This document shows, piece after piece, positions 40 to 33,349 of a stretch of DNA of 64,000 nucleotides (position 1 is the first letter of the stretch; each line of letters starts with the position of its first letter). The notes below the pieces were generated by a model that saw nothing but the letters and a program-made list of their open reading frames with translations, ran no database searches and had not been told where the DNA came from. Origin of the DNA: a virus; the IMG/VR virus record IMGVR_UViG_3300009034_000020, positions 1-64,000 of that record; one strand, 5' to 3'. The translations under genes and the position numbers were made by a program.

Positions 40-330
40 CTAGTACGGCAATACGCATATCTCACCTCTTATGATGTGTGAGGCCAGGGACTCGCTAATG
101 AGGTACTCCATCCGTAGGTGGGGGTACCGGAAGTGGGTGCAGGAACCCAAAGCCTCCACCGCCAGGAGTTCCCTGGCCGCATTACTCAACGGAGTTACCC
201 AGATAGTACGGCTACCCCATTCCCCACGGCCCAGGACCTGGATACCGTACTTGAGGAGTGATCCGTAGTAGGGGCGGGGAGCTAGGATCCCCCGCCGCAT
301 ACGAATATCTTCCGGGTTCTGCTTGGTCAC
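40..330 (-). CDS. hypothetical phage protein
   Basis: 96-aa ORF whose start overlaps the upstream stop (GTGA), same strand as the operon. Confidence 0.45.
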   Translation of the reverse strand: MTKQNPEDIRMRRGILAPRPYYGSLLKYGIQVLGRGEWGSRTIWVTPLSNAARELLAVEALGSCTHFRYPHLRMEYLISESLASHIIRGEICVLPY

Positions 331-782
331 GGCAGCACCAGTCCTTCCTTTGTCTTCTCCCAGTCCATCGTACCCGGCAGGACAATACCCCGCTCTGCGG
401 TCGGGGGTTCTCCCAAGGGCTCATAGCGATTGGCCGGCCGTACGTAAACTGAGCCATCGAGCTGGGGTTCTATCTCACAGCCCCAGCCTAAGAACAACCC
501 CTTCACGAACTCCCACCGCAGCTCCTTGGAGAAGCTATTGATGAAGTCCATGATGAAGCCAACGATGAATGCCTCGTGGGTGTAACCCATCTGCCGAAGT
601 GTCTCCGCGCACGCCTGCGCCCAGCACTCCCAGTCGGTCTCGGCCTTCACCTGGAATACCTGGTCGATGTGCCGGTGGACTGGGCGGGTCTCGGGCGTGT
701 GGATCTTCACCCGAATAGTGGGCTGCTGGTTCTCACAGCTCGGGTGAGTACCACCACGGCGGCGCTTCTCACCTTTGCTCAT
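327..782 (-). CDS. hypothetical phage protein
   Basis: 151-aa ORF, ATGA-coupled, purine-rich RBS. Confidence 0.6.
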   Translation of the reverse strand: MSKGEKRRRGGTHPSCENQQPTIRVKIHTPETRPVHRHIDQVFQVKAETDWECWAQACAETLRQMGYTHEAFIVGFIMDFINSFSKELRWEFVKGLFLGWGCEIEPQLDGSVYVRPANRYEPLGEPPTAERGIVLPGTMDWEKTKEGLVLP

Positions 783-1190: not shown

Positions 1191-1601
1191 TTACCTCCGA
1201 AACTCCGGCATCTGGTCCTTCTTGAACACTACCCTGTGGTTGCAGTGGGGGCAGGCCCAGAGAACCGCGAACTTTCCCTTGAGTTGTTCCCTCCAGTCGG
1301 GCGGGGCGCCGACGATCTCGACATTCGGTTGTTCGAGGACCCACGTGGCGCTTCGTTCACCGACTAGGCGGAAGGTATCTTCACCGCAATTCCAGCAGGT
1401 GACACCGGTATCCACACTGTCCGTCAGGAGAGCACGCTGGTCCGGCTCTACCGGAGTAGGATCTTCGGTGATGTCCAGCTTCACGTAGGTCCACGGGCTC
1501 TCGGGTATGGCATCCTCGTCCCGCGGGTCGTGGCCTGGGCGCCAAATGTGGTGCCGCTGGATTGCCCGCTGTTTCTGGCTAGGATGGATCTCGCCGGGCA
1601 T
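1191..1601 (-). CDS. zinc-ribbon protein
   Basis: CWNC and CPHC motifs. Confidence 0.6.
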   Translation of the reverse strand: MPGEIHPSQKQRAIQRHHIWRPGHDPRDEDAIPESPWTYVKLDITEDPTPVEPDQRALLTDSVDTGVTCWNCGEDTFRLVGERSATWVLEQPNVEIVGAPPDWREQLKGKFAVLWACPHCNHRVVFKKDQMPEFRR

Positions 1602-1844
1602 CTACTCCACCAGCCACTTATCGAAGACAGGACTCTCCCAGGCACCAGGGGGCTTCCAATCGCAGGCAGCCGCCAGTACGGCCGCCAGGGCCTTCTCCAC
1701 GCGCTCATTCGGCAGCGCTAGCGCCACGTCAACTGGCACACGCACGACGATCTCGTTGTCCCCCTCCGCACGTTCTGCGCGGATGAAAGTAAAGAGATCA
1801 CCCACATTACCTCCTAAGATACTCTTCGGACGTTCTCCTGTCAT
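1602..1844 (-). CDS. hypothetical protein
   Basis: 80-aa ORF tightly packed in the operon, GGAGG RBS. Confidence 0.55.
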   Translation of the reverse strand: MTGERPKSILGGNVGDLFTFIRAERAEGDNEIVVRVPVDVALALPNERVEKALAAVLAAACDWKPPGAWESPVFDKWLVE

Positions 1845-1845
1845 G

Positions 1846-3045
1846 TCAGTCCTCCGTCTCTACATAGGTCTGGGGATTCAGGGTGATCCCAGACCGGCCC
1901 AGGTGAGCGATAGGGTAGCCGAGCTGGCATAGGACCTTCAGCTTGTGCTCTAGGGGAATATGTACGTCGCCCACGGTCGCCAGCATATCCCCATCGTCGT
2001 GGCCCTGAAGTATAGCTCGTTCCCACCAACGGTTGCTAACATCGTGGGCGTCTTGGGCGCCTTCACCTATCAGGCTCACCAGCGCCACCTCGATGATGTC
2101 CTGTACGGTACCAAAGACCCGCTGGCGGAAGCACTCGCTCACTGGGCTAGGGTACTCGGTCCAGCGGCCATAGCGTGTCTCGGAGCGCTGCTGCTCTCGA
2201 TACACCGTGCTCTCTAGTGCACACCAAGCGCGAATTGCTGGGAGTTTCTTGTCCAGGACATCCCGCACAAGCTGCTCCGGCTCCGCTGGTAGCGGCCCGA
2301 TGTCACCCAGTCGGTACAGTACTCCCTCATCCTGGTCTAGTACTACCCAAGCCAAGAACGGCAGTACCTCGACATGGGGAATACCTAGCTCATTCGCCAA
2401 GTGGTCCACTGGATCCTCGTCCGGCGTATCCACGAAGAGGCGATAGAGCGTCGGGTCACCAGTAAGCGAAGCCAGCACACGGAGGAACAGGTGGTCATAC
2501 TTGACCTGCCACCTCCGCCCCTCCCCGTCCGGCGGTTGGAGGGCTATGTGCCGGGCTAGTGGTAAGCTGACACTTGTGTAGTACTCCCCCAGGTCAACGG
2601 TGAGCTGCGGCTCGATAACAGCGCAGTCCAAGGCATCCTGTGCGGGGGTACTGAACGCGGCCTGGCTGCAAACAGCATAGCCAGAGCAGTACTCCAGGAG
2701 CATGAGGTCTCCTACGAAGTGCTCGGCTATAGCTCTCCGCTCTGGTGTATGCATCCCAGGCTCGTAAGTGCCGAAGATGACATCGAGCAACTTGGGTAGC
2801 ACGGAGCGGATACTGCGCGTCACCAAGAGCGGGCCTTCCCGGCCAGTCAGGAGGCCCTTCAACATGGCCGCGCGCACCTTCCACAGCGCAACGGACGGTG
2901 GTAGCTCCACCAGCCAGGCCGCGTTCTTATTGGCAAAGCCCATGCGGTTATCGTCCCACAGGGCGAAGCCGACTGTTTCTTGTGTCCGAAGCCAGTCGCC
3001 CAGCTCCAGGATACTTATCTGATCGTTGACGGTGGCGACTTCCAT
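1846..3045 (-). CDS. degenerate family A DNA polymerase paralog, predicted inactive
   Basis: YDHLFLRVLASLTGDPTL resembles motif A (DWSQLEVWVLGYQTGDPTL in the phage PolA); LPAIRAW...ETRYGRW and VFGTVQDII match the fingers/palm; catalytic Asp residues absent. Confidence 0.7.
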   Translation of the reverse strand: MEVATVNDQISILELGDWLRTQETVGFALWDDNRMGFANKNAAWLVELPPSVALWKVRAAMLKGLLTGREGPLLVTRSIRSVLPKLLDVIFGTYEPGMHTPERRAIAEHFVGDLMLLEYCSGYAVCSQAAFSTPAQDALDCAVIEPQLTVDLGEYYTSVSLPLARHIALQPPDGEGRRWQVKYDHLFLRVLASLTGDPTLYRLFVDTPDEDPVDHLANELGIPHVEVLPFLAWVVLDQDEGVLYRLGDIGPLPAEPEQLVRDVLDKKLPAIRAWCALESTVYREQQRSETRYGRWTEYPSPVSECFRQRVFGTVQDIIEVALVSLIGEGAQDAHDVSNRWWERAILQGHDDGDMLATVGDVHIPLEHKLKVLCQLGYPIAHLGRSGITLNPQTYVETED

Positions 3046-3263
3046 CAGTCTACCTCAGCGTAGGAGAACCCTCCGCCCTTGACTAGCTCGTTGAAAGCCT
3101 TGCCCAGTGAGTCGGCGAACAGGATCTCAGTCACGAGCCCCGCCGGTATGTCCTCGTAAGCGTACACCCGGCCATTATTGAACTCGACCAGCAAGACGTG
3201 CTCGTCCTTGTGGTACTCGAACGAGGTAATCATGCTGGACTCAACCGCTAGCTTCTTCGCCAT
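3045..3263 (-). CDS. KTSC domain protein
   Basis: VESSMITSFEY...LLVEFNNGRVYAYEDIP...ADSLGKAFN is the KTSC signature. Confidence 0.85.
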   Translation of the reverse strand: MAKKLAVESSMITSFEYHKDEHVLLVEFNNGRVYAYEDIPAGLVTEILFADSLGKAFNELVKGGGFSYAEVD

Positions 3264-3855
3264 GGTCAACCACCTCTCCTTCTACTACCTCTTCTTCGTC
3301 CTCCGGAACAGGGTCTAGGAGCTTCAACTCCTGGAACTTCCTAAGCATCGTCGGCGGGATCCTGGCGTTCGGGTCGGCCTGGATCATAGCCAGCGCGATC
3401 TTCTCGGCCAGGTTCAGGTGCGTCACGTCCACATCGACCTTCCTTCTTTCGACGATGAGGCCGCCCGCCTTCAGTAGGAGCTCACCCACCTTCAACCTGA
3501 TGGCATGATCGGGGACAGTAGTCCCCCAGGTGAACTTCTCGCCACAGAATGGACACTTGATCTCCTCCTTGATGCCCTTCTCTGCCTTTGCCGCGGCAGT
3601 GATGAGGCCGGTAGCCTCCATGGCGGCGAACTCCAGGGCCTTCTTAGCCCCCTCGGTCATGCTACCGAAGAGCTTGCTGTAGGCTGCTATGAAGCCGTTA
3701 TCCGTACGTATCCACCGAGACGCCCGCTGCGGCTGGATACCTGTTTCCGCGCACGCCTCGTGCCAATCGCCACAACGTATCAGCGCCTCCAGGAAGGCAC
3801 GCTGGGCCGGAGTCAGTCGATCAGCGTCTCGCCTCCGCGCTGGCCCAGTCACCAT
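3241..3855 (-). CDS. HTH DNA-binding protein, terminase small subunit-like
   Basis: LTPAQRAFLEAL...ACAETGI...RW N-terminal HTH, CPFC motif, C-terminal ERRKVDVDV and acidic tail. Confidence 0.5.
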   Translation of the reverse strand: MVTGPARRRDADRLTPAQRAFLEALIRCGDWHEACAETGIQPQRASRWIRTDNGFIAAYSKLFGSMTEGAKKALEFAAMEATGLITAAAKAEKGIKEEIKCPFCGEKFTWGTTVPDHAIRLKVGELLLKAGGLIVERRKVDVDVTHLNLAEKIALAMIQADPNARIPPTMLRKFQELKLLDPVPEDEEEVVEGEVVDHGEEASG

Positions 3856-3856
3856 G

Positions 3857-4111
3857 TTAGGCTCCGCCGATGATATGCCAACGCAGGAACCGGAACTCCC
3901 AGCCGACCAGCTTCTGGCTGTATAGACCAAATGGCCCAAGCACGAGCATGAAGCCAGGCTCTTCGCCACCGAAGTAGGAGAAGAACAACCCGACCCCATA
4001 GCACTCCATGCTGTAGCCGAAGATGAAGCCGAAGGCTATGGCTCCCGGAAAGAAGTCCTCCCCGACTGGTTCGGCGCCGTATACCACTGCTGCTGGGGGT
4101 ATCGTTCGCAC
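3857..4111 (-). CDS. hypothetical Gly/Phe-rich protein
   Basis: 84-aa ORF filling the gap downstream of polA. Confidence 0.45.
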   Translation of the reverse strand: MRTIPPAAVVYGAEPVGEDFFPGAIAFGFIFGYSMECYGVGLFFSYFGGEEPGFMLVLGPFGLYSQKLVGWEFRFLRWHIIGGA

Positions 4112-4115
4112 CTCT

Positions 4116-6716
4116 CTACACCTCCTTGTCTAGTGTAACCACGTTTCCATTAGCTGTCAAGACCGTCGTCTGCTCTCCCAGAGAACGTCCCCAGGAGACC
4201 TCGACCGGGCATTGCCAACCTAGTTTCGTGCCATCTGGTAGTATAGTCTCTTTCGCTACCCGCTCCCAGAGGTTCTTGATGAGCCATGCTGTCTCCAACG
4301 TGTACTCTGGGCTTGGAGCCTTAGCCTCAAAGACCAGCGAGTCATGGACCTCTAAGATAATGTTGGCACGGCCCTTCAATTCCTCCGCGCCCTCGGTCAC
4401 CACATGCGCGCGGCCGTGAAGGTCATGACCACCACTCTGGATGGGGAAGTTGTAACCCTTCCGAATGAGCTTCTGTAGGTCGTACTTGTACCCCAGGATC
4501 TGGAGTATCGGGATCTCCGGGAAGTGCCGCCATCTACCGAACTTGTTCTTGATACGGTAGTCGGTCAACATCCCCCGCTCTATCTCCTTGAAGTAGGCCG
4601 GGAGGGTTGGGAAGATGTCGGTCACGTACGCACCCATCAGAGCATGGGACTCATTCATCCCACACCCCAAGCGAGACGCAGCACCCTCATCGGTGAGCCC
4701 GTAGTTGATGCCGAAGGTGAAGACCTTGGCCTTCCCCCGCAGCTCGCCGAATTCCTGGCGCCAGTCCTGGTCATCCATGCCTACCCCCACATTGGGGAAC
4801 AAGTCGCTAATCTCTAGCTCGCCCAACTTACGAGCCACATAGGTATGGACATCCTCGCCACCCAGCAGCAACCCCATCAAGGTCGGATCCCCCGTCTGGT
4901 AGCCCAGCACCCACACCTCTAGCTGGGACCAGTCAGCGTTCATCAGGACACAGCCAGGCGGGGCGATGAAGAGCTGCCGGAAGGCATCCTTTAGCCCTAG
5001 TTCCGGGATGTGTATGTCCTTCGGTGGGTTCTGGAGGTTCGGCTTCTCGTATGAATGCCGCCCTGTGTCGGCGAAGCTCACCTTGACGTGCGCGTGGATG
5101 CGGTTGTCGGAGCAGATGTAGCGCCCGTAGCCACCAGTATCGCCACCGAGGTAGGTACTATAGAACTTGGTGGCACCCTTCAAGTCCAGGATTATCGGGA
5201 TGGCAGGATGCTTGTGCTCGGCATAGAGCGCCTCCAGCACCGCCTTATCTGTCGTCACATGGTCGATACAGGGATGCTCTTTGGTGCACACCCCGCAGCC
5301 CTTGGCACCGTCTGTCCGCTCATTAGGGATGGGGAACCCAAGGTCCTTGAACAAGTACTGCTGGAGCCCCGCCGGGGCCATGCTGACCTTCTTCCCGGCT
5401 ACCTCTTGGAGCTGCTTCTCGTACTTCTTGGCGACACCCGTGTAGTGGGTGCAGAGCTTCTTGAATAGCTTCGTGTCCACCAGGACCCCGCGGCGCTCCA
5501 TCTCCCAGCAGGCGCGTACAAGGGGCGTGGTGATGTTGTCTAGTAACCAACCGCTACCCTGCTCATTGACCTTCTCCTGGAGCTGCGGCGCAATGCGGGC
5601 AACTACATCCGCATCCGCCGCGCCATACTTCCACGTGATGATGTCTGGCACGTCTATCATGCGGCGCTTCCGCTGCGACAACTGCATGACCTCCTCCTCG
5701 TAATAGGGGAGATCAGTCCAGAAGGCGGTCAGATCTGTCAAGTGGTGCGACACGTTCTCCTGGAGGGCACGGCTGAGGAACAGTGTGTCTTGGTCCAGGT
5801 TCTCTACCCGTAGACCGAATGCTGTAGCAGCGGTGATGATCTCTTCGTCCTGGCGGCGCTCCAGGAACCGAACGTCGAAGTGTGCGTTCTGCCCCTGCTT
5901 CGGCTTATCGGAAGCGAAGATCTCACGCAGCAGGCAGATTACCTCAGCCCACTCGTTGTCGTTCCAAAATGGCTCCCAGCCCTGCCGGAGGATGGGTACG
6001 ATATAGCCAACGCCACCCTCATTCGGTGAGAAGGTGATGCATATCAGCTCGTCCCGCATCCAGTCTAGGCCCGTGGTCTCGGTGTCGAAGGCGAATGACT
6101 TGACCTCCGGCCCCACCAGGTAGGTCCGCAAGGCACGCAGGTCCGGCAGGGACAGGATAGGGGCGTAGTCGCCCATGTTCTGGCTACCTACCCCAGACTT
6201 CGCTAGACGAGCGGCCTTCTGCATGTGCGCCACGACCATCGGTGTCGCCGCCCACCTCCGCATGACGAATGCCGGGTGGTATGTTGGGACTAGGGGGATC
6301 CCAGTATCCTCCTGAACGAGGGTCTGTCCCGCCACGTCGCCGAGGACCATACGCCGGTAGAGCGTAGCTAGAGCCGGCACGCCCAGAGTCACGATGACCT
6401 TGGGCTGCACCCGCTTGATGATCTCGATGACGTTGGGCCGGCAGTTGGCCAGCTCTTCCGGCCTAGGCGTCCGGTTACCCGGCGGCCGGCAGAAGCAGGC
6501 GTTGAGTAAGTAGATCTCAGATGGCTTGAGACCCGCCTGCTTCACTAGCGTTGCTAGGACACGCCCAGCCTTGCCGACGAACGCCTTTTCCTGCTCGTCC
6601 TCTTCCCGCCCAGGAGCCTCTCCCAGGAAGAGGAGGTCGGCATGAGCAGGGCCTCGGCCCTTGACGATCTTAGTCCGGCTCTTGACCAGGCTCGGACACT
6701 TCTGGCATGTGGTCAA
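4116..6716 (-). CDS. polA: DNA polymerase family A with N-terminal family-4 uracil-DNA glycosylase and 3'-5' exonuclease domains
   Basis: UDG motifs GEAPG, CRPP.NRTP, YHP; exo FDTETTG; pol motifs NADWSQLE, RGKAKVFTFGINYG, EVHDSLVFE. Confidence 0.95.
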   Translation of the reverse strand: MTTCQKCPSLVKSRTKIVKGRGPAHADLLFLGEAPGREEDEQEKAFVGKAGRVLATLVKQAGLKPSEIYLLNACFCRPPGNRTPRPEELANCRPNVIEIIKRVQPKVIVTLGVPALATLYRRMVLGDVAGQTLVQEDTGIPLVPTYHPAFVMRRWAATPMVVAHMQKAARLAKSGVGSQNMGDYAPILSLPDLRALRTYLVGPEVKSFAFDTETTGLDWMRDELICITFSPNEGGVGYIVPILRQGWEPFWNDNEWAEVICLLREIFASDKPKQGQNAHFDVRFLERRQDEEIITAATAFGLRVENLDQDTLFLSRALQENVSHHLTDLTAFWTDLPYYEEEVMQLSQRKRRMIDVPDIITWKYGAADADVVARIAPQLQEKVNEQGSGWLLDNITTPLVRACWEMERRGVLVDTKLFKKLCTHYTGVAKKYEKQLQEVAGKKVSMAPAGLQQYLFKDLGFPIPNERTDGAKGCGVCTKEHPCIDHVTTDKAVLEALYAEHKHPAIPIILDLKGATKFYSTYLGGDTGGYGRYICSDNRIHAHVKVSFADTGRHSYEKPNLQNPPKDIHIPELGLKDAFRQLFIAPPGCVLMNADWSQLEVWVLGYQTGDPTLMGLLLGGEDVHTYVARKLGELEISDLFPNVGVGMDDQDWRQEFGELRGKAKVFTFGINYGLTDEGAASRLGCGMNESHALMGAYVTDIFPTLPAYFKEIERGMLTDYRIKNKFGRWRHFPEIPILQILGYKYDLQKLIRKGYNFPIQSGGHDLHGRAHVVTEGAEELKGRANIILEVHDSLVFEAKAPSPEYTLETAWLIKNLWERVAKETILPDGTKLGWQCPVEVSWGRSLGEQTTVLTANGNVVTLDKEV

Positions 6717-7164
6717 CGTAACCTGCTCCTAGCACAGCCAATACCTCTAGAGCCTCCTCGTCCGTCTCGACGATGAGCGAGCAGGCTTCCTTGACAAAGA
6801 TATGGCTATGGATGTTGTTCGGCTCCATGAGCACTAAGATGTACTTCCCATGATCATGCGCCCGCTGGATCTCCATGCAAGTGCCAATGGACACCTGGTC
6901 AGCGCCCAACAAGCGAGCGAAAAGGACATCGCACGTACGTACGTCGAAGCAATCGCGGCCATAGACGCCCTTCTGGGAGCTGACTGGGTGCTGTTCATAG
7001 CCCTCGGTAGTGAACTTCCGCACACGCTTCAGATGTTCCTTACCACGCATGGGGGACACGGCGGTATGACCTAGCTGGTGGAGTTGTGCGGCATACTCCT
7101 CACGCCACTCGACAGCACCCTTGTAGGTCTGCCCCGCAATCGGTCCTGCTAGATAGATTCTCAT
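6670..7164 (-). CDS. nucleoside 2-deoxyribosyltransferase family protein
   Basis: IYLAGPI, D..DV..CD, SIGTCMEI..A motifs. Confidence 0.8.
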   Translation of the reverse strand: MRIYLAGPIAGQTYKGAVEWREEYAAQLHQLGHTAVSPMRGKEHLKRVRKFTTEGYEQHPVSSQKGVYGRDCFDVRTCDVLFARLLGADQVSIGTCMEIQRAHDHGKYILVLMEPNNIHSHIFVKEACSLIVETDEEALEVLAVLGAGYVDHMPEVSEPGQEPD

Positions 7165-7490
7165 TTCCTCGGCCTCCTACTGAGCCGCATGATCTCCTTG
7201 CGGAACTTCTCCTTCTGGTCGCCGGTGAAGTAGCGGCTGTACTGCTCCTCCCGAATGTCGTTGATGAACCGCAAGCAGGCTTCCCGACCTACAGCAGCAG
7301 GGTCCTCGCCGGACATGACTTCACTAGGGCCGTTGCACGAGCAGCCGATGCCATACCAAACGCCTACCTCGCCACTAATGCTGATGCCGACAGCTAGGTA
7401 CTCCCACTCGTAGCCGCCGCCTAGGTCGCCTAGCTCACCAAGCGTCAACGTCCATCCTTCTGGGGGCTCGAAGTCGAACTCTGGTGTCAT
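7161..7490 (-). CDS. hypothetical protein
   Basis: ATG at 7490 coupled to the ruvC stop; GGGYEW and GCSCNGP motifs. Confidence 0.55.
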   Translation of the reverse strand: MTPEFDFEPPEGWTLTLGELGDLGGGYEWEYLAVGISISGEVGVWYGIGCSCNGPSEVMSGEDPAAVGREACLRFINDIREEQYSRYFTGDQKEKFRKEIMRLSRRPRK

Positions 7491-7975
7491 ACTGCACCTC
7501 CAGCCTTGGAATCGAAACAGGCGATGCACACCGCATCGTAGAAGTCCTGTGGGTGATCGTCCTTCAACCCCTTGAAGTGGGCAAGCGCCCACCTCTTGAT
7601 GTCTTCCTTCGAAGCATGTCCATCCCCGAGCACAGCACGCTTCCACGTTCCTGGGTCCACAAGGGTATGGTTCTGCCCGCGCAAGTACAGGAGCGCACGG
7701 ATAGCACCGACGACGATAGACTGATCGATGATGGCCTTGCGATTGATCTTGCGTGCGCCGCCACCCACCACCACAGGTCGCTCCACGTAGATCCAGTCAC
7801 ACGTGTCGAACTCTGGGATGGCGTGATAGAAGAGGTCTACGAGCATACAGAGCCGGTCTTCTGCCCGGCGCCCCTTCGCCTCTACTCGGCCAACGTGCAC
7901 AATACCTGGGGCCTCCGTGTCGGTGACGGCCCAGGTGATGGCCTTTGTATCCGGGTCAATCCCTACGACTCGCAT
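7487..7975 (-). CDS. ruvC: RuvC-like Holliday junction resolvase
   Basis: VVGIDP, YVERP, P.TWK..V.G.GHASKEDI, D.YDAVCIA. Confidence 0.85.
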   Translation of the reverse strand: MRVVGIDPDTKAITWAVTDTEAPGIVHVGRVEAKGRRAEDRLCMLVDLFYHAIPEFDTCDWIYVERPVVVGGGARKINRKAIIDQSIVVGAIRALLYLRGQNHTLVDPGTWKRAVLGDGHASKEDIKRWALAHFKGLKDDHPQDFYDAVCIACFDSKAGGAV

Positions 7976-8300
7976 CTTCTTCCCCACCTCTCTCTTGTGG
8001 GTAAGGACGATCATCCAACTCGGGATGCTGGGCGAGATACTCCAGGAGAGCAAAGGCGCACCAGGCCACGGAGGCTAGGTGATGCTGCCCATCCTCGCCA
8101 TCTAGTTCCTCCCCGCCCCACCATTTCCAAGCGTGTCTCTGCATCGCCGCGAAAATCCGGCCGAACGCGATGCCCTTCTCCCAGTTGCGGTCGGTGTACT
8201 TCCTTGCGCCCATAGTGTAGACGTATACCAACTGAGCCAGTGGACCAGGGGGGAGTAGATCGTACCGGAGTTTCCCGTCGTCACTCTTATCGCCGGCCAT
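7956..8300 (-). CDS. dATP/dGTP diphosphohydrolase domain protein (DUF5664-like)
   Basis: K.D.GKLRYDLLP...GARKY..RNWEKG...AMQRH...GEELD.E.G.HHLA. Confidence 0.85.
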   Translation of the reverse strand: MAGDKSDDGKLRYDLLPPGPLAQLVYVYTMGARKYTDRNWEKGIAFGRIFAAMQRHAWKWWGGEELDGEDGQHHLASVAWCAFALLEYLAQHPELDDRPYPQERGGEEDASRRD

Positions 8301-9308: not shown

Positions 9309-10580
9309 TTAGTCCCCCTCTTCCTCTTCTATGCTGTACTCGTAAGTCACACCTTCTACCTGGAACCGGCCGCCGAACGGCTGGACCAGGGTCGGGTGCA
9401 CGGCGCCCTCGATGATCTGGCTATAGGCGAAGCCATGCTGCCAGTCAGCAAAGGCATCATAGTCCGGGCTCAACTGACATAGGCAGCCCATCACTGTCCA
9501 GCTCTGGGACTGACCCTTGTCACCTAGCCAGGAGTAGATCTGGTTGCGGTGGAAGTGGCCGCAGAGGCCGCTAGAACGGACCTTCTCGCCCATCCACTTC
9601 GCGCAGTGCTTGATGTTGGCGTTCATGCGGAATGGACCATGCGTCACGATGAACCCAGCGTAGTCGATCCGGCCAGGGAAGGGCATGTGCATGATGCCCC
9701 TCTTCTTGAGACCGAGGATCGAGTCAATCGAGAGCATCGGGTCGCCGTCCTCGTTACGCAGGTTCGTCAACTCAGGACCTCGACTCCAGAGGTAACGCTG
9801 GAGCCGGTGCTCGTGGTTACCATCGACCCAGATCTGCTCAGCGTTAGGGACTGCCTGCCGGTGATAATCCAGCATGTGCCGGGTCCCGGCGAACTCGCTC
9901 TCCAAGTCGAAGAACCGCGTCGGGTTCTTGATGAAGACGGAGATCGTATAGGCGTCCATCTTGTCTCCGCAATAGAAGATCTTGTCAGGCTGGAAGTCGA
10001 TGAGCGCCCGCTGTACAGCCATCCACAATCCCTTCTCTTGGAAGGGGTAGTGAAGGTCAGCGATGTAGAAGGCGCGCTCGCCTTCCCGGACATCAGTCAG
10101 TACTGCTACCAGGGGCTTCTCCTTGATAGCGAACAACCCCTGCTCATAGCGGACCTGGCGCCGGGCGGCATTGTGGGCAGCCTCCGCGCACTGAGGATCG
10201 CAGAAGATGTTGGTGTCGGCCCGCGGCTTGAACTTCTTCCCGCAGTAGGTACACTCCCGTTCGTCCAGCGGGACAGCCCCACGAGCCGCAGCCTGAGCGG
10301 CCTGGCGCTTGCAGAGTATCGAGCAATACTTCTGGTTCGCCGGGCGAATCGCCGCCAGCTTCCGAGAGCAACCGTCTCGGGCACACTTCACGCGCTTCTG
10401 CTTCTGGTGACCAGTCCGACGCTCGTCATTCTCGACCCCACGCCGGCACCTAGCAGAACAGTATGCCTTGTTAGGCAGTGCGTCCGCAGGGAGCTCGTTC
10501 TTACATTCCTTGCGCCTACAGATCCGTGATCTCTTGTGTGAGCTGTCTACCATGTCGTTACTCTCCCTCTCCTGGGCCAC
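9309..10580 (-). CDS. calcineurin-like metallophosphoesterase with three N-terminal zinc-finger repeats
   Basis: ADLH, GDKMD, GNHE, THG, GHFH motifs; repeats of C..C...(Y/F)C...C. Confidence 0.85.
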   Translation of the reverse strand: MAQERESNDMVDSSHKRSRICRRKECKNELPADALPNKAYCSARCRRGVENDERRTGHQKQKRVKCARDGCSRKLAAIRPANQKYCSILCKRQAAQAAARGAVPLDERECTYCGKKFKPRADTNIFCDPQCAEAAHNAARRQVRYEQGLFAIKEKPLVAVLTDVREGERAFYIADLHYPFQEKGLWMAVQRALIDFQPDKIFYCGDKMDAYTISVFIKNPTRFFDLESEFAGTRHMLDYHRQAVPNAEQIWVDGNHEHRLQRYLWSRGPELTNLRNEDGDPMLSIDSILGLKKRGIMHMPFPGRIDYAGFIVTHGPFRMNANIKHCAKWMGEKVRSSGLCGHFHRNQIYSWLGDKGQSQSWTVMGCLCQLSPDYDAFADWQHGFAYSQIIEGAVHPTLVQPFGGRFQVEGVTYEYSIEEEEGD

Positions 10581-11229
10581 GCAGCCTCTTGATAAGAGTC
10601 ACGCCACCCGGCTTCTCAACGAGATACGTAAGGTCCGCTGCATCAGCCATCTCAGGCTCATGGCTAACCAGTGGTGCTACTTGGAGCTCCAGCCGCTTAG
10701 TCATCTCCTGTAAGAGCTGGCATAGGGCGGGCCGGTATTCAGCGCTAACGTGCGAGAACGGCTCATCCAACAGCAGCAGCCGCCGGAGTGGGGGCCGTAC
10801 GCTCAGCGTCAGCAAGATACGCAGCAGGAAGTCCATGACCTCTACCAGGGAGCCCCCATCTGCCTTCAAGGGGTCCTCGATCTTGAGGTCTCCGTCGTAC
10901 AAGATGATCTTGCTGCTGCTCACGCCCCGGACCAGCTTGGTCTCCACCTCAATGCGGAGCGGACGGCCGAACACAGTAGTCAGCCCCTCGCTAACCACGC
11001 CGGCTAGCGACTTCTCGAAGGCGCCGCGCCATTTCTGCTCTAGGCTTTGGAGGATAGCCAGAGCCGCCTTGTGGAGCTCGGCACCAGTTGTCTCACGCAG
11101 GAAGCAGTCGTGGGCCTCCCCTATCTGCTGGTCTAGGAGGTCAGCCTGGCCCCGCCAGCGCTCTAGCTGGGCCTGTGCTGTTCTCAACGTGAAGGCAATG
11201 ACCTTAGTCTTCTGATCCAGCAGTACCAT
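10558..11229 (-). CDS. Rad50/SbcC-like ATPase, C-terminal half
   Basis: Coiled coil, signature-like ADGGS, Walker B LLLLDEP, H-loop VSHE; no Walker A. Confidence 0.8.
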   Translation of the reverse strand: MVLLDQKTKVIAFTLRTAQAQLERWRGQADLLDQQIGEAHDCFLRETTGAELHKAALAILQSLEQKWRGAFEKSLAGVVSEGLTTVFGRPLRIEVETKLVRGVSSSKIILYDGDLKIEDPLKADGGSLVEVMDFLLRILLTLSVRPPLRRLLLLDEPFSHVSAEYRPALCQLLQEMTKRLELQVAPLVSHEPEMADAADLTYLVEKPGGVTLIKRLRGPGEGE

Positions 11230-11470
11230 CAATCTCCTCCAGAACTCCATCCAGGCGCGTGGCGATACCATCCACTACCTCCTCGGCATCCCGCAGCATG
11301 GTATCTGCCTGCTCTTGGAGGTCCTTGTGTATGTCGAAGCCGAGGTCGTTGAGCTCTTCCGTCAAGGCAACAGCAGCCTTGTGGGCCTCGCCTTGCCGGG
11401 CCTGGAGCTGGGCGAAGTCTCGCTCAGCCGCCCGTAGCTTGTCACGTAGGGCTACTAGCTCGGTGTTCAT
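11204..11470 (-). CDS. small coiled-coil protein
   Basis: 88-aa heptad-rich ORF coupled between Mre11 and the Rad50 C-half. Confidence 0.65.
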   Translation of the reverse strand: MNTELVALRDKLRAAERDFAQLQARQGEAHKAAVALTEELNDLGFDIHKDLQEQADTMLRDAEEVVDGIATRLDGVLEEIDGTAGSED

Positions 11471-12483
11471 AACCCCGCCTCCTCAAGGTAGTGCTTAGCG
11501 AGCTGGGCAGCACTAGACTTGCTATCCCCGAGCTCGGCTAGCACCTCATCTAGCGTCATTTCTTCTGCCTGAAGACCGCCCGCTATCGTCCCGACGAATT
11601 GCTGGATCTCGTCGGAGACGCCTTCCTCGTCCAGCGGGCGGTCTTCAAAGACTTCTCCAGCGGGTAGGACCTTTGACAGTCCATGTCGAGTTAGCTTCAC
11701 ATGAGCCCCGTAGGATGACGCCTCGTCGATCTCGTCGTCCACCTCCAGCAGGAGGACATGGAGACCCCGCGAGAGATTAGATTGGGTACGGGAGATCCTA
11801 GAGATGCTCCCGATGTTGGCGAACAGCTTGTGCGTTGGAGCCTTCTTCGTCTTCCGGATCACGGTGACGCCCAGGTCCTCGTGGATATGGCCGGCCAACA
11901 CTACGTCGATGCCGTCTAGCGGCAACGCAGTGACGTTCACCGAGTCGTACTTCCGTTGAGCACCAGGGGGGAGGATAGGCCCATGCGCCACCAAGATGAC
12001 AGCCGGGCGCACCCTGAACTTGTTGATGATCTCCTCCTCTTCTTCTGCCAGTACGTAGTACTCTGGGTCAGAAGACCGCTCTGCGTCCCACGGGCGCCCT
12101 ATCAACACCGTGTTCTTGAAGACGACGGGGCCAACGAGTGGAGTGATGACCCCAGCCTTAGCTAGTACCCCCAGCGGCTGCTTGCTCAGGCTATCCAAGC
12201 CCTCAGAGCTGAGATCATGGTTGCCGGGGACCACCCAGTGTGGATGCTCGTCCGGCCAAGAGCTGAACAAGTAGATGAGCTGGCCCACTAACCGGTGGCT
12301 GACCCGATTCGGGCGCTTCTGGTGGAAGATGTCGCCAGTGCAGAGGGTAGCATTCGTCCGCCACTGGAACGCCATCTCCCTAATCTCCAGCAGCTTCTCG
12401 TAGATGCTGGTCGTGTAGTCATCGACGCGCCCGAGTGGAGGCTTGTCGGCGATGTGTGGGTCGTTGTAGACCAAGATCCTCAT
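11467..12483 (-). CDS. Mre11/SbcD-like nuclease
   Basis: NDPH, TGDIFH, PGNHD, AHG, GHIH motifs; flanked by Rad50 halves. Confidence 0.9.
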   Translation of the reverse strand: MRILVYNDPHIADKPPLGRVDDYTTSIYEKLLEIREMAFQWRTNATLCTGDIFHQKRPNRVSHRLVGQLIYLFSSWPDEHPHWVVPGNHDLSSEGLDSLSKQPLGVLAKAGVITPLVGPVVFKNTVLIGRPWDAERSSDPEYYVLAEEEEEIINKFRVRPAVILVAHGPILPPGAQRKYDSVNVTALPLDGIDVVLAGHIHEDLGVTVIRKTKKAPTHKLFANIGSISRISRTQSNLSRGLHVLLLEVDDEIDEASSYGAHVKLTRHGLSKVLPAGEVFEDRPLDEEGVSDEIQQFVGTIAGGLQAEEMTLDEVLAELGDSKSSAAQLAKHYLEEAGL

Positions 12484-12659
12484 GGCAAGTACTCCAGTGG
12501 GCTAAGGAAGCGTCGTGCTCCACAGCATGTACACTCAGACCACCCGGTAGGTATCCGCAGGTCCTTCTCTTCGAGGACCCACTCAGCCTCCCATCGGTGC
12601 TGCCCCTTGAGCCAGCACAGTACATGCCCTGCTGCTACTTGAATGGGCAGTGATCGCAT
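12480..12659 (-). CDS. small Cys/His protein (59 aa)
   Basis: Translated by hand: MRSLPIQVAAGHVLCWLKGQHRW...CTCCGARR; ATGA-coupled to Mre11. Confidence 0.5.
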   Translation of the reverse strand: MRSLPIQVAAGHVLCWLKGQHRWEAEWVLEEKDLRIPTGWSECTCCGARRFLSPLEYLP

Positions 12660-13561
12660 ACCTTAGCCCCCTCACATGCACGCGCGTAGTCCCTGCGCAG
12701 CTTCTTGATAGCGAATGTAGTATTCGCTACTAACTGGTCCACTGTGTCTGCCTCCACACGTGCGCGCGCGTACCTTATTATAAGGGGTTCGACATTCACC
12801 AAGAGGTCCAGGCGGCGGTTGGTCTCCTCCAGGTCTTGCCCGATGGGATCGAGGTCAACTGACGCTAGCTTCTCCAGCTCGACTTGAGCTGCGGCTATTT
12901 CTTGAACACGTGCCACGATGTCCTGCGCCTTAGTCGCTAGCTCCAGCTCCTCCCCAACCCCATCGAGCTGTTCCTGGAGCTTTTCGAGGGGCGGGAGTGC
13001 ATCCCGCTGTGCCTTCAATTCGCCAAGCAGGGCCTCCTTGGCCGCTGCCTCTCGGCGGTGCTGGTCCCCTACCCGCTTGCACTCCATCTGGGCGACGACC
13101 ACAGTATCCGCCCGAGTGACCTTGCCGAAGATCTTGGCCTGCCGGGACCCGCTCTCGCTCAACACGAAGATAGGGTCAAACTGAGAGGCAAGCTGGGGGG
13201 TAAGTGCGGTGTCCTTGTCTACTTCTAGCTCCCCTATCGCCAACCGTTCCCGGATCTCAGCCGGTACCTCGTGCCCTACCTTGGTGAACATCTTCCCGTC
13301 GAGGCCATAGGTGGCGCTCTTGCCCCGCGGCTTTGTCCAGGTCACACAGCAGTCGTCGAACTCCAGGACGACAGTGCACTCCTTCTCACCCTGGCGTATG
13401 AAGTCATCGCCAGTAGCATTCAAGAGAGCGCACCGAATAGCCCGGACAACAGCGCTCTTGCCGGCCCGGCCAGGGCCAACGAGCACTGTGAGCTGCCCAA
13501 GGTCTAGCTCAGCGTGCTCGATACTCTGGAAGTTGGTGACCCTAACTGCCTTCAGGCTCAC
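12635..13561 (-). CDS. Rad50/SbcC-like ATPase, N-terminal half
   Basis: NFQS, Walker A GPGRAGKS, Q-loop ASQFD, coiled coil ending in CDHC. Confidence 0.85.
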   Translation of the reverse strand: MSLKAVRVTNFQSIEHAELDLGQLTVLVGPGRAGKSAVVRAIRCALLNATGDDFIRQGEKECTVVLEFDDCCVTWTKPRGKSATYGLDGKMFTKVGHEVPAEIRERLAIGELEVDKDTALTPQLASQFDPIFVLSESGSRQAKIFGKVTRADTVVVAQMECKRVGDQHRREAAAKEALLGELKAQRDALPPLEKLQEQLDGVGEELELATKAQDIVARVQEIAAAQVELEKLASVDLDPIGQDLEETNRRLDLLVNVEPLIIRYARARVEADTVDQLVANTTFAIKKLRRDYARACEGAKVCDHCPFK

Positions 13562-13748
13562 GTTTGTCCCCCAGTACGAGGTGGGCCTCGTCCATCACTG
13601 CCAGGAAATCCGCCACCACAACGTTGTCGAACATGATGTCATCGTACTCACGGCAGTAGGTCTCAGCGTCCGCATTGAGGTCCACGAGCGCTCGGAGTAC
13701 CTTCCGCAACGCAGCAGCATCTGCTAGTGCATCATCCTGTTTGCTCAC
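13542..13748 (-). CDS. hypothetical protein
   Basis: 68-aa ORF overlapping its neighbours. Confidence 0.5.
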   Translation of the reverse strand: MSKQDDALADAAALRKVLRALVDLNADAETYCREYDDIMFDNVVVADFLAVMDEAHLVLGDKREPEGS

Positions 13749-14775
13749 GGGTCTTCTCCTTCGGTAGTGGGATCTCCCAGTCAGATGGTGACTTGGCTAT
13801 CAGCTTCTGGAGTTCCTTGTCTGCCTCCAGGATAGGGCCGAAGTCCGCATGGCGGAACTTCCTGCCTTTGTAGTCGTACCATCCCTTGTTCTCCACGATG
13901 ATGCCAGCCTCTACAGCGCAATCGAGGGATGACCCTACCTTGTCGATGCCAGTCTGAAAGTCGATGTCGAATAGGCACTCGCGGTAGGGGTTGTGCACCG
14001 TACTCTTCACGATGTGCGCCTTGACCTTGATACCAGTCGGCCTCTTCGGGTTGGCCCCCAGCCGTTCTACCTCCATCAGGTGGACCTTCAAGCTGGACCA
14101 GTAGTTGAGCGTCTTCTCCCCAAGCATCGTCATCTCGTCCTTCTTCCACCTAGAGAAGTCTACCTTGTGGCGGAGCTGGTTGACGAGTACGAGAGCAATG
14201 CGCTCTCGTGCGATGAGGGGGTGGAGTTTGCGGAGCGCTCGGCTAAGCTCTCGGGCATGTGCTGCTACGTTGGTCTCGCCAAAGTCTGCCTCTACGTCGG
14301 CCTTCGATGGAGAGCCAGCGATAGAGTCGTAGACGATGGTAACCAACCGGTCAGGGAATTGCTTCCGGGCTACCACGATAACGTCCCTGATCTGACGCAG
14401 CACATCTTCTAGTGTCTCGCCTTGGAGCTGCATGAGCAGCTCATCCGTGATGCCCAACCGAACAGCACGGTCCATCCAATAGCGCCGCTCACTATCCGCC
14501 AGCACAGCGATACCTCCGCGCCGTTGTGTCTCGGCCAGGAGGTGGAGGCCAACGGTTGACTTACCGCTGGCCTCCGTGCCAATGAGAGTAGTGAGGCGGC
14601 CTACAGGTATACCAGGGTGGCCGAACATGTAGTCCAGCACTGGGCACTGGGTACTCACGTACTCAGTGACCTTGGAAGCAAGCTGAGCGCCAGCGCCGAC
14701 GATGATCTTGTCGTCCCCAAGGGTCTCTTGGAGCGACTGAAGTTCCTCGACCTGGCGCTTGCGGCTACTCGGCAT
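13732..14775 (-). CDS. recA: RecA/UvsX-like recombinase
   Basis: GIPVGR, GTEASGKST, IVYDSIA, VNQLR. Confidence 0.92.
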   Translation of the reverse strand: MPSSRKRQVEELQSLQETLGDDKIIVGAGAQLASKVTEYVSTQCPVLDYMFGHPGIPVGRLTTLIGTEASGKSTVGLHLLAETQRRGGIAVLADSERRYWMDRAVRLGITDELLMQLQGETLEDVLRQIRDVIVVARKQFPDRLVTIVYDSIAGSPSKADVEADFGETNVAAHARELSRALRKLHPLIARERIALVLVNQLRHKVDFSRWKKDEMTMLGEKTLNYWSSLKVHLMEVERLGANPKRPTGIKVKAHIVKSTVHNPYRECLFDIDFQTGIDKVGSSLDCAVEAGIIVENKGWYDYKGRKFRHADFGPILEADKELQKLIAKSPSDWEIPLPKEKTREQTG

Positions 14776-32653: not shown

Positions 32654-33349
32654 CTAGACTTCACGCAGCACAGCATGGGGCTCCGGCCACCCTCTAGTAC
32701 TATCCCATAGCATCCACTGGGCGGCGAAGCATGAGACTCCAAGCTGCACACTGAGGCGTCGAATCTTCGCCTCGATTCTAACGTAGGTCCGACGATTGAT
32801 AGCCTTCCCTATGTTCTTGCCAGTGAAGAGGCGATAGAGCCATGAGTCAACGCAGCATACGTCCGATGCTACAGGGTCCGCCAGTGCTACAGCGAACCGA
32901 GCCTTAGCTATCCCGAGACCCTTGACCCTATCTTCTAGCCTGTCAGCCCACTCTTTATGAGTAGAGCCATTGCGCCCGTAGGGTGTCGAATCATACGCCC
33001 AAGAGCGGGCGAACCTAGACAGGTACCTAGCTTTGCTCTTGTAGTACATGATAGGCGGCCGTATCTTGTCCAACACTGAGGCGATAGCGCGCCAGTCTAG
33101 GCGCTGTAACTGCCGGGCACCTAGGCTCCGCATTGCACGGTAGGCTGATATGTTCGCCTCTATCCTAGTGTTCACACTGAGGATGCTGAACACAACCCGC
33201 CAGAACACTAGCCTATTGGATGGTTCATGCTGGATGGCCGCTGTGTATTCTCGGTATCGCCCGAGCGCTACGTCCGCCAGTGCCAGTGCAGACTCCTCGT
33301 CGAATCGTACTAGCTTGGGCGTGCCATCCAGGGTCAACTGTAGAGCCAT
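32654..33349 (-). CDS. helix-hairpin-helix DNA glycosylase (Ogg/EndoIII superfamily-like)
   Basis: FSILSVNT, KARYL, VKGLGIAKARF, VCCVDSW. Confidence 0.7.
   Translation of the reverse strand: MALQLTLDGTPKLVRFDEESALALADVALGRYREYTAAIQHEPSNRLVFWRVVFSILSVNTRIEANISAYRAMRSLGARQLQRLDWRAIASVLDKIRPPIMYYKSKARYLSRFARSWAYDSTPYGRNGSTHKEWADRLEDRVKGLGIAKARFAVALADPVASDVCCVDSWLYRLFTGKNIGKAINRRTYVRIEAKIRRLSVQLGVSCFAAQWMLWDSTRGWPEPHAVLREV

Follow-up and report, generated by a model that had tools for sequence, protein, structure and literature searches.

Comparison with described polymerases

Replication repeatedly makes use of inactivated polymerases as structural components. The examples that we found all belong to family B, namely a module of Pol epsilon, the archaeal inactivated PolBs, poxvirus F12 and the polinton helicase fusion, and the passages of the literature searched contain no inactivated polymerase of family A. 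The roles of the family-B modules are often structural. In phages, second and divergent PolAs, named divPolA1 and divPolA2, were described as having a truncated or absent thumb and an inactivated or missing exonuclease; in the passages concerned they keep the catalytic residues of the palm and are predicted to be active polymerases (PMC11348598). The UDG-PolAs, reported as the N4-like cluster 17 among 19 PolA clusters and as unclassified UDG-PolAs, have a three-domain architecture, and no catalytically dead PolA subfamily appears in the passages of the source that deal with them (PMC10201439).

The window studied here, meaning the whole stretch of 64,000 nucleotides of viral DNA, carries on the minus strand (1846..3045) a gene for a thumbless, catalytically dead Klenow-like protein of 399 aa, P0001, which we call the pseudo-polymerase. 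The frame begins with ATG and is intact, as the original prediction had it, and the peptide strings quoted there for this protein and for the resident PolA were all found in the two translations. Like the Pol I large fragments (Klenow, KlenTaq, Bst LF and M. smegmatis Pol1), the protein has a colinear series of exonuclease-like domain, palm and fingers (Z 22-24 over ~340 residues), and past motif A it shares with them the segments LRVLAH..GD..L, T-L-x-G-R and G-T-x-x-D. However, these fragments have roughly 540-600 aa, whereas the pseudo-polymerase is without the thumb or the motif 1/2 region; its motif A and motif C carboxylates, its O-helix Arg/Lys and its ExoI pair are replaced, and it stays below the Pfam DNA_pol_A cut-off. 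It resembles divPolA1 and divPolA2, as these are described in part of PMC11348598, in that its gene is a PolA-like addition to a genome with an ordinary DNA polymerase and in the state of its thumb and exonuclease, but its family has lost the palm catalytic residues throughout. No divPolA was matched by tblastn with P0001 at E<=1, though the phage records searched include at least one divPolA1 genome (MW353176). With the inactivated family-B modules, as far as the sources cover them, the pseudo-polymerase has in common a polymerase fold without catalysis that is apparently kept for a non-enzymatic, often structural role, and it may be regarded as their family-A analogue; it differs from them in family, in the absence of homology and in its hosts and viruses. 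The described UDG-PolAs find their likeness in the three-domain resident PolA and not in the pseudo-polymerase (PMC10201439).

Fold and origin of the pseudo-polymerase

The AF2 model of P0001 was of high confidence (pLDDT 93.4, pTM 0.92). Its residues 1-398 aligned with residues 299-871 of the Bst Pol I large fragment, a segment that starts with the exonuclease-like domain (1xwl; Z 22.5, rmsd 3.5, 339 aligned), and the model also matched M. smegmatis Pol1 (6vdd; Z 23.9, rmsd 4.1, 345 aligned). Foldseek, which the original prediction had proposed as a check against Klenow, likewise found structural similarity (1kfd, E 1.1e-10). The structural alignment thus gives a Klenow-like fold with an N-terminal exonuclease-type domain, a palm and fingers. 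Residues of about 1-150 (2596..3045, minus strand) were assigned to a 3'-5' exonuclease-like domain of DnaQ type from the model alignment to Bst, the secondary structure and the column counts; residues of about 151-399 (1846..2595, minus strand) form palm and fingers without a thumb, according to the HMM alignment to Taq 609-818 and the family columns. In the exonuclease-like domain the ExoI pair is gone and an ExoIII-like D137-A-x-D140 is retained. The second part contains the motif A remnant W179-x-V-K182-Y183-x-x-L-x-L-R-V-L-A..G-D-P-T-L together with T-x-Y-G-R294 and F-G-T-V-x-D316-I motifs. The protein is acidic, with a net charge of -23.5 in P0001 and a median pI of 5.6 in the family.

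Sequence profiles agree with the model and the structural alignments that this is a homolog of the family-A polymerases. The family profile matched Taq Pol I with 45.2 bits (E 5.4e-11), its columns 185-387 spanning 211 Taq residues, that is, the C-terminal palm and the fingers at nearly full length. When scores were compared at equal database size, Pol theta reached 21 bits and the Pol I of Bst and M. smegmatis 17-19 bits, whereas the resident UDG-PolA obtained 8.5 bits (E 7.4); the PolAs of related phages obtained 5-7 bits. The original prediction had seen a paralog of the phage's own PolA, colinear with it by eye. The colinearity holds with respect to Pol I in general, given the Taq profile match and the end-to-end alignment of the model; a paralogy with the resident enzyme in particular is not supported, because the profile favours Taq Pol I, and the pseudo-polymerase does not look like a recent duplicate of the resident PolA. 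Judged by these alignments, the similarity between the two proteins of the phage is real yet marginal and is confined to the stretch from motif A through 'YGR': BLASTP aligned residues 183-334 of P0001 with residues 596-767 of the resident PolA (E 0.004, 23% identity), and hhalign, comparing the family profile with one built from 8 resident-type PolAs, aligned columns 187-302 with 597-733 (E 9e-5, probability 59%). The by-eye matches in the exonuclease part had no significance by sequence. The pseudo-polymerase seems to descend from the large fragment of a cellular-type Pol I, or else to go back to a very old split. A word-indexed protein search returned a single relative in the near length range, and in the longer range its sole match was a eukaryotic Pol I-like protein (E 3e-4). 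The protein was also considered as an RNA polymerase or as part of a split polymerase, and this was rejected, the top structural matches including the exonuclease domain of DNA Pol I, no catalytic acids being conserved and the resident PolA being complete.

Loss of catalytic residues and of the thumb

Residue columns were counted over 48 aligned family members, P0001 included. The column of the motif A Asp (Taq D610) has Lys in P0001 and is acidic in 3/48 members, the commonest residues being T (18), S (8), V (5) and A (4). For motif C the alignment of the hairpin is weak and the exact columns are uncertain; the column under Taq D785 is acidic in 14/48 without a consensus, that of Taq H784 shows a gap or W, and no conserved acid was found anywhere in 328-352 among the 48 members. 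In the dNTP-binding columns of the O-helix, Taq R659 corresponds to W (42/48) and Taq K663 to G (35/48). The likely ExoI columns, which were assigned by strand position and not by residue-level structure, are acidic in 1/48 and 2/48 and hold A (33/48) and R/K/W. The ExoIII Asp was kept (34 D and 5 E of 48) but the ExoIII Tyr was not. P0001 accordingly lacks the motif A Asp, the motif C His-Asp, the O-helix Arg/Lys, the thumb and the full DEDD set of exonuclease residues. The loss of the ExoI, motif A, motif B and motif C residues had been claimed for this single protein, and it now extends across the 48 aligned members.

The deletion of the thumb was also correctly foreseen. The spacing from the ExoIII-like Asp to the motif A Tyr is 45 residues in P0001 and 44-63 (median 48) in the family, against 228 in the resident PolA, and at the position of the thumb the model has one helix only (154-169). 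About 180 residues are absent in comparison with Pol I large fragments, comprising the thumb and the N-terminal palm with the motif 1/2 region. Since the side chains for polymerisation, for dNTP binding and for proofreading are all gone, synthesis and editing of DNA by the pseudo-polymerase are, as judged from its residues, impossible.

Genomic context

The carriers are a clade of uncultivated phages with genomes of roughly 70 kb and SU10-like capsids. Directly upstream of the pseudo-polymerase lies a gene for a KTSC-domain protein of 74 aa (3045..3269, minus strand, probable start ATG 3263; Pfam PF13619, E 7e-15), and a homolog stands upstream of the pseudo-polymerase in 10/14 related loci. 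The TGA stop of the KTSC gene shares bases with the ATG of the pseudo-polymerase (TGATG). The next gene, w252 (3241..3999, minus strand, start probably M48 at 3858), encodes an HTH protein that was characterised by alignment A8 and by an AF2 model (pLDDT 73), with homologs in 9/14 loci; its DNA-binding domain is of the small-terminase type, and it has a CxxC hairpin and a C-terminal tail that is acidic and conserved. By this arrangement the pseudo-polymerase is made in tight translational coupling with the KTSC and HTH proteins. The w252 model matched the SF6 small terminase in Foldseek (E 1.1e-3) and two structures in VIA over the HTH only (Z 7.0 for 2ao9, 6.1 for 3hef). w252 is at most a candidate for the phage's true small terminase, as these matches are weak and the gene lies within the replication operon.

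On the downstream side, an ORF of 80 aa (1602..1844, minus strand, from the ORF list) starts 1 nt past the pseudo-polymerase stop and had no phmmer match in the related loci. It is followed by w136 (1191..1601, minus strand), a Cys4 zinc-ribbon protein with a conserved CxxC...C in alignment A7, which is a conserved downstream partner with homologs in 11/14 related loci. The last member of the cassette is w151 (327..782, minus strand), a conserved protein with homologs in 7/14 loci and without a match in Pfam, PHROG or NCBIfam. The order w252, KTSC, pseudo-polymerase, w136, w151 is kept in every related locus that is long enough to show it. Our finding defines a five-gene cassette together with a sizeable protein family that the libraries do not name.

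The cassette occupies the distal end of the replication operon, beside or near the gene for UDG-exo-PolA. In the window this resident polymerase (4116..6716, minus strand, 866 aa) joins UDG, 3'-5' exonuclease and PolA domains (Pfam PF03167, PF01612, PF00476), provides the sole PF00476 match of the 72.8-kb record and is apparently active; 8 resident-type PolAs show no variation in the ExoI, ExoII, ExoIII, motif A, motif B and motif C residues. UDG-exo-PolA is directly upstream of the cassette in the window and in six related loci (L002-L007), its identity in L003 and L006 being supported by Pfam. The upstream distance grows to 3.5 kb in L008, with ClpP-like, LAGLIDADG and deoxyribosyltransferase genes in between. 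Since PolA need not adjoin the cassette, the tightest association of the pseudo-polymerase is with w252, KTSC and w136 and not with PolA. The surrounding operon, on the minus strand, codes for a DnaB-like helicase (16737-18080), primase (15824-16813), SSB (14765-15805), UvsX/RecA (13732-14775), SbcCD-like proteins and RuvC. No clamp or thioredoxin-type factor was recognisable in these phages here. A MazZ-like domain suggested a diaminopurine (Z-base) genome; this was rejected when no adenylosuccinate-synthetase-like (PurZ) match appeared among the scanned ORFs. Taken by its place and its maintenance, the pseudo-polymerase is an old and selectively maintained component of the replication operon.

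Proposed role

As a dead protein has been conserved beside a working polymerase across this phage group, the pseudo-polymerase probably fulfils a new function in DNA replication, one that is not enzymatic. The explanation that we prefer, at a probability of about 0.45, is a thumbless and dead Klenow-type body, long a component of the operon, that likely serves the replication machinery without catalysis, either as a scaffold or as an accessory subunit. Such a rigid, acidic, polymerase-shaped body would bind replication proteins, possibly the resident PolA, the helicase-primase, SSB or its cassette partners, and would organise them. A further-reaching version holds that the ancestor of a widespread clade of uncultivated podophages captured the large fragment of a cellular-type Pol I, which was stripped of thumb and active sites and became an obligatory subunit; without catalysis of its own, it would assemble or regulate the replisome together with the KTSC, terminase-type HTH and zinc-ribbon proteins. 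We regard this version as doubtful. If it were true, family A would here have its first equivalent of the inactivated family-B subunits. A family-A polymerase that is dead yet conserved and selected, in the replication operon of a phage, would carry the principle of inactivated polymerases over to the best-studied polymerase family. It would also offer a compact Klenow-shaped scaffold whose partners could reveal how a replisome is organised without recognisable clamp or thioredoxin-type factors. Complex prediction of the pseudo-polymerase with w252, KTSC and w136 (scores 0.00 and 0.00, against a mark of 0.32) was evidence neither way. The small-terminase-type HTH of w252, as seen in alignment and model, might speak for a part in DNA recognition or packaging and not in the replisome.

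The same HTH leads to the reading that survives best among the alternatives, in which the pseudo-polymerase binds nucleic acid without chemistry: its palm-fingers cleft, aided by the HTH and zinc-ribbon partners, would recognise a DNA or RNA structure, for example an origin, a primer-template, a concatemer junction or a pac site. Fingers and C-terminal palm are nearly of full length, the neighbours w252 and w136 would fit such a function, and basic residues compatible with nucleic-acid binding are strongly conserved (R294 in 48/48, K/R189 in 47/48, K/R266 in 42/48, and K/R165 also conserved) and basic tails occur in some clades, namely an N-terminal extension of ~100 aa in one clade and a C-terminal tail in P0003. 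However, the thumb, which grips duplex DNA in PolAs, is deleted along with the motif 1/2 region, and the core is acidic. Moreover, the column of Taq Q754, a Gln that we take to read the minor groove, has F, L or M instead and an acidic residue in 0/48. We consider the nucleic-acid-binding reading unlikely.

Family extent, selection and homing elements

The pseudo-polymerases are a genuine and sizeable protein family that is named in no library searched. In a representative library at 50% identity, the family search gave 67 matches at E<=1e-3 and 44 at E<=1e-10, and in the Atlas the closest clusters with proteins of about 400 aa comprise 101 and 146 members, every one viral. P0001 had no match in Pfam (E<=1), its exonuclease model PF01612 included, or in PHROGs (E<=0.01), and P0001 and five relatives (6/48 aligned members) had none in NCBIfam or PADLOC (E<=0.01). 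Weak matches to DNA_pol_A were found in 9/48 members (best E 0.0044), with 17.9 bits for P0056 and 13 bits for P0050, below the curated cut-off of PF00476 (34.3 bits). Neither single queries with P0001, P0004 and P0008 against viral contigs nor alignment A4 against viral and genome contigs gave a match, and no prophage or host was found in these searches. Among 50,697 phage records, tblastn with P0001 at E<=1 met only one ordinary PolA of 891 aa (E 0.09), which is not a family member. For annotation this calls for caution, since a match to a PolA-like fold in a phage genome need not mean a polymerase.

The dN/dS test that the original prediction had suggested indicated purifying selection on the intact frame, with values of 0.12 (L002-L003, dS 0.41) and 0.19 (L005-L006, dS 0.40). 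In the same pairs the neighbours gave 0.06 and 0.11 (PolA), 0.09 (KTSC) and 0.08-0.10 (w252). This bears on the idea, also raised by the original prediction, that the protein is an anti-defence decoy or inhibitor whose polymerase shape titrates or blocks host sensors of the family-A polymerase fold. Anti-defence genes are usually patchy and fast-evolving. The pseudo-polymerase gene is single-copy, is under selection that resembles that on its core neighbours, and matches none of the PADLOC families. The decoy reading is quite improbable, because conservation runs deep, with members down to about 21-25% identity, and the gene keeps its fixed position within the replication operon. It finds some encouragement in the STAND sensor Avs19, which, in the passages of the report concerned, responds to the core polymerase domain of family-A polymerases from phages, whereby the catalytic aspartate is not required; by that same report, however, a protein with a polymerase fold would be a trigger and not a shield (PMC13581612).

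Very improbable, too, is an enzyme with a different chemistry, whose site would have been rebuilt, for example from the conserved acids of the exonuclease-like domain. D113 (43/48), D137 (39/48) and D140 (38/48) are well conserved as acids, the ExoII-like D78 column is acidic in 30/48 (D in 28/48), and D197 and D316 are acidic in 48/48. However, the ExoI carboxylate pair is absent and P0001 has Ser at the ExoII column. D197 and D316 belong to the segments 'GDxxL' and 'G-T-x-x-D', for which Taq has the equivalent segments in the alignment, and we take these two acids to be structural. That the gene is a decaying remnant without function, as the loss of all catalytic residues might suggest, is hardly credible and already contradicted by selection and conservation: the frame of 399 codons is intact, dozens of clusters with a mutual identity of just 21-38% likewise retain whole frames of about 340-490 aa, the dN/dS values are low, the fold is predicted with confidence and the synteny is conserved.

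Inteins and homing elements typically enter conserved, indispensable replication genes. Two members of the family carry independent inteins, one at the motif A remnant and one at the EPQ..YY..LP motif, and these sites are the two most conserved motifs of the family. An HNH gene adjoins the pseudo-polymerase gene in L003, and the homing elements near this gene are a circumstantial sign of its essentiality.

Homology to DNA polymerase I and loss of catalytic residues

The ORF at 1846-3045 on the minus strand was confirmed as real; it begins with ATG and encodes a 399-aa protein (P0001, the pseudo-polymerase). The original prediction had read it as a dead paralog of the phage's own PolA (P0002, 4116-6716, minus strand, 866 aa), which contains a family-4 UDG (Pfam E 3.5e-30), a 3'-5' exonuclease (E 1.4e-14) and DNA_pol_A (E 3.5e-47). 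The peptides quoted in support were all found in the translations of the two proteins. In BLASTP, residues 183-334 of P0001 matched residues 596-767 of the resident PolA (E 0.004, 23% identity), and the match of the family profile to that of eight resident-type PolAs (hhalign E 9e-5, probability 59%) was confined to the stretch from motif A to 'YGR'. The resemblance seen by eye held in this stretch, while the matches in the exonuclease half were not significant by sequence. Taken alone, the sequence likeness to the resident PolA would be only just above chance.

The homology of the family to Pol I large fragments is firm. When 1.84 billion representatives were searched in full with HMMER, we obtained 67 relatives at E<=1e-3 (query counted), 44 at E<=1e-10 and nine at E<=1e-30, most of them 340-490 aa long. 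By features, the nearest entries in the ESM Atlas were unnamed viral clusters of ~400 aa with 101 and 146 members. We aligned 48 proteins, 47 from the scan and P0003 from a separate search; fragments, the two proteins with inteins and rows that were weak or repetitive were excluded (P0039, P0044, P0045, P0050, P0052 and P0055-P0069). The resulting profile matched Taq DNA polymerase I at E 5.4e-11, with positions 185-387 aligned to 211 Taq residues from motif A through the C-terminus. The AlphaFold2 model obtained from the alignment (pLDDT 93.4, pTM 0.92) matched 166 PDB chains at E<=1e-3 in Foldseek, the 45 of them listed all being family-A polymerases, and Klenow (1kfd) was matched at E 1.1e-10. 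In VIA-align, the model superposed on M. smegmatis Pol1 (Z 23.9, rmsd 4.1, 345 aligned) and on the Bst large fragment (Z 22.5, rmsd 3.5, 339 aligned), model residues 1-398 covering chain residues 299-871 of the latter, from the exo-like domain to where the palm ends. Together with the profile matches, these structural results therefore bear out the colinear, whole-length relation to PolA that had been proposed.

Residue losses were scored by alignment to Taq and by column counts across the 48 members. The motif A Asp (Taq D610) is K in P0001 and mostly T or S elsewhere (acidic in 3/48), and the second motif A acid (E615) is replaced by L, W or F and is acidic in none. In the O-helix, R659 has become W in 42/48 and K663 has become G in 35/48. 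The column under D785 is acidic in 14/48 without consensus, no conserved acid was found in positions 328-352 of the 48 members, and the Q754 column holds F, L or M. The likely ExoI columns are Ala in 33/48, and R/K/W; ExoII is Asp in 28/48 and Ser in P0001; the ExoIII Asp is retained (39/48 acidic) and its Tyr is absent. In contrast, ExoI-III and motifs A-C were invariant across the eight resident-type PolAs. The ExoIII-like Asp and the motif A Tyr are separated by 44-63 residues in the family (median 48) and by 228 in the resident PolA, and the model places a single helix between them, so the thumb and the N-terminal palm (motifs 1 and 2) have been deleted; the fingers are retained at almost full length. 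Judging from these sequence losses, the protein cannot serve as a polymerase or a DEDD exonuclease, and the description 'dead PolA homolog' was well founded.

The family is otherwise strongly conserved at D137-A138-x-D140, E-P-Q...Y-Y156..V..P162, W179..Y183..L186..R-V-L-A..D197-P198, W233, G237, D239, L-P253, D265-K266..P269, T-x-Y-G-R294 (R294 in 48/48), G312..D316, G348, L375 and P378. Members of one clade (A3; for example L006:9734-11191, P0011 and P0013) have a basic N-terminal extension of ~100 aa (KRK..RKR), probably disordered, and P0003 has an Arg/Lys-rich basic C-terminal tail of ~70 aa on an otherwise acidic core.

Origin of the family and comparison with known polymerases

The claim that the protein is a paralog of the phage's own PolA was not upheld. 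At one search-space setting (Z = 177,635), the family profile scored 45.2 bits on Taq Pol I, 21 on Pol theta, 18.9 on M. smegmatis Pol1 and 17-18 on Bst Pol I, but 8.5 (E 7.4) on the resident PolA and 5-7 on PolAs of related phages (4 reported of the other 7 searched). Structure-based identity of the model was 19-20% with Taq and 13-15% with Bst and M. smegmatis. These values suggest that the family derives from the large fragment of a cellular-type Pol I or goes back to a very ancient split; a recent duplication of the neighbouring gene does not fit them. The one longer relative that a word-indexed search returned was a eukaryotic Pol I-like protein, and within the 72,816-bp virus record the resident PolA was the only PF00476 match.

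Among published phage proteins, divPolA1 and divPolA2 come closest; they are extra PolAs whose thumb is truncated or missing (PMC11348598). However, these retain their catalytic residues and our family does not; tblastn of P0001 against 50,697 phage records, a divPolA1 genome included, found no family member. The passages covered from the 19-cluster PolA reclassification deal with UDG-PolAs, split exo/pol genes and 'broken-thumb' subfamilies, and contain no dead PolA subfamily (PMC10201439). Inactivated polymerases in the literature searched all belonged to family B. By these comparisons, the family adds an undescribed case to the known exapted inactivated polymerases; both its polymerase family and its setting are new for them.

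The cassette and the replication operon

The pseudo-polymerase is one of the distal genes of a minus-strand operon (~33 kb), which also encodes a UvsW-like helicase, RNA ligase, DnaB-like helicase, primase, an SSB, UvsX/RecA, SbcCD-like proteins, a metallophosphoesterase, a MazZ-like dATP/dGTP pyrophosphohydrolase domain, RuvC, a nucleoside deoxyribosyltransferase and PolA. Its neighbours were compared by phmmer with all ORFs of 14 related loci, six on viral contigs of 7.9-75.6 kb (four of 70.8-75.6 kb) and eight on metagenome contigs. Homologs were found for w252 (3241-3999, minus) in nine loci, the KTSC protein (3045-3269, minus) in ten, w136 (1191-1601, minus) in 11 and w151 (327-782, minus) in seven; order and strand were constant wherever they occurred, and most of the missing ones are explained by contigs that stop short of the site. 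For the 80-aa ORF at 1602-1844, phmmer gave no counterpart in the 14 loci. In the window, the stop of KTSC and the start of the pseudo-polymerase share the sequence TGATG, the end of w252 reaches past the KTSC start, and the next ORF begins one base past the pseudo-polymerase stop.

Immediately upstream of the cassette, L002-L007 each have a UDG-exo-PolA of 883-888 aa, checked by Pfam in L003 and L006 and, in the others, by an alignment that shows 45-46% identity to the PolA of the window. L008 belongs to a different clade; there a 947-aa PolA lies 3.5 kb upstream, and the interval holds a 399-aa ORF, a ClpP-like protease, a LAGLIDADG gene and a deoxyribosyltransferase; the 399-aa ORF (L008:5276-6475, without Pfam match) and the protease (6491-7363) directly follow PolA.

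The true start of w252 is probably M48. An HTH at its N-terminus is followed by a long helix, a hairpin with CxxC and a conserved acidic tail (…V-V-E-G-E-V). The model of w252 (pLDDT 73) weakly matched small-terminase DNA-binding domains (SF6 3zqq, E 1.1e-3; 2ao9, Z 7.0, and Sf6 3hef, Z 6.1, these two over ~55 residues). This weak small-terminase-type fold sits in the replication operon, away from the packaging genes. w136 is a Cys4 zinc ribbon, and the KTSC domain receives passing mentions, without established function, in the portions of the literature covered.

Possible role

P0001 has a net charge of -23.5 and the family median pI is 5.6. The protein is a folded, acidic, Klenow-shaped body without thumb, catalytic or dNTP-binding residues, co-expressed from a replication operon with small DNA-binding-type proteins. 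We tentatively propose (probability roughly 0.45) that it is a non-catalytic accessory subunit or scaffold through which replication proteins, or the partners in its cassette, would be organised; inactivated family-B polymerase modules, as far as the sources covered describe them, offer a parallel. It is rather unlikely that it binds nucleic acid without catalysis, together with its HTH and Zn-ribbon partners. A decoy against polymerase-sensing immunity is improbable: Avs19 reportedly recognises the PolA core whether or not the catalytic Asp is present (PMC13581612), but the deep conservation of the gene at a fixed replication-operon position argues against it. A new enzymatic activity through the conserved acids of the exo-like domain seems slightly more improbable still. 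That the gene is a remnant without function is hardly credible, for the dN/dS proposed as a check (Nei-Gojobori, own script, two unsaturated pairs of related contigs) was 0.12 for L002-L003 (dS 0.41) and 0.19 for L005-L006 (dS 0.40), indicating a maintained gene; in the same order, the values were 0.06 and 0.11 for PolA, 0.09 and 0.09 for KTSC, and 0.08 and 0.10 for w252.

Two family members carry inteins, inserted independently in the two most conserved sequence blocks of the family. In P0050 (652 aa; locus L014:1814-3772) the intein comes immediately after the Tyr in the remnant of motif A (…W-W-V-S-Y, then intein C…H-N, then T-D-L-W-L-R-V…), and in P0045 (672 aa) E-P-Q-H precedes the intein and C-N..Y-Y..V..L-P comes after it. 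An HNH endonuclease ORF adjoins the gene in L003 (L003:9473-11197). With the LAGLIDADG gene (L008:7564-7980), homing elements cluster at this locus in the relatives.

Other features of the phage genome

The structural genes lie on the strand opposite to the operon and include an SU10-type major capsid protein (58643-59854, plus; PF17236, E 9e-26) and two tandem SU10 adaptor paralogs (64448-65059 and 65064-65672 of the full record, plus), indicating that the phage is an SU10-like podophage in structure. Almost none of the other structural ORFs had a PHROGs or Pfam match; a 1975-aa ORF among them (51671-57598, plus) had none at all. The far end of the minus-strand operon, outside the window, holds a 345-aa phosphofructokinase (PF00365, E 5e-63; 71717-72754 of the full record, minus; L017:7717-8754), which looks like an auxiliary metabolic gene for glycolysis.

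The N-terminal UDG of the resident PolA retains GEAPG-type and HPAF-type motifs. This UDG, a nucleoside 2-deoxyribosyltransferase-like protein (6670-7164, minus), a MazZ-like dATP/dGTP pyrophosphohydrolase N-domain (7956-8300, minus; PF18909, E 1.5e-32) and an Ogg-type glycosylase (32654-33349, minus) may point to base modification in the phage DNA; the ORFs scanned included none that resembled PurZ. Finally, the SbcC/Rad50-like ATPase seems to be split into an N-terminal ORF (AAA_23/AAA_15; 12635-13561, minus) and a C-terminal ATPase ORF (10558-11271, minus), with an Mre11/SbcD-like phosphoesterase (11467-12483, minus) between them.
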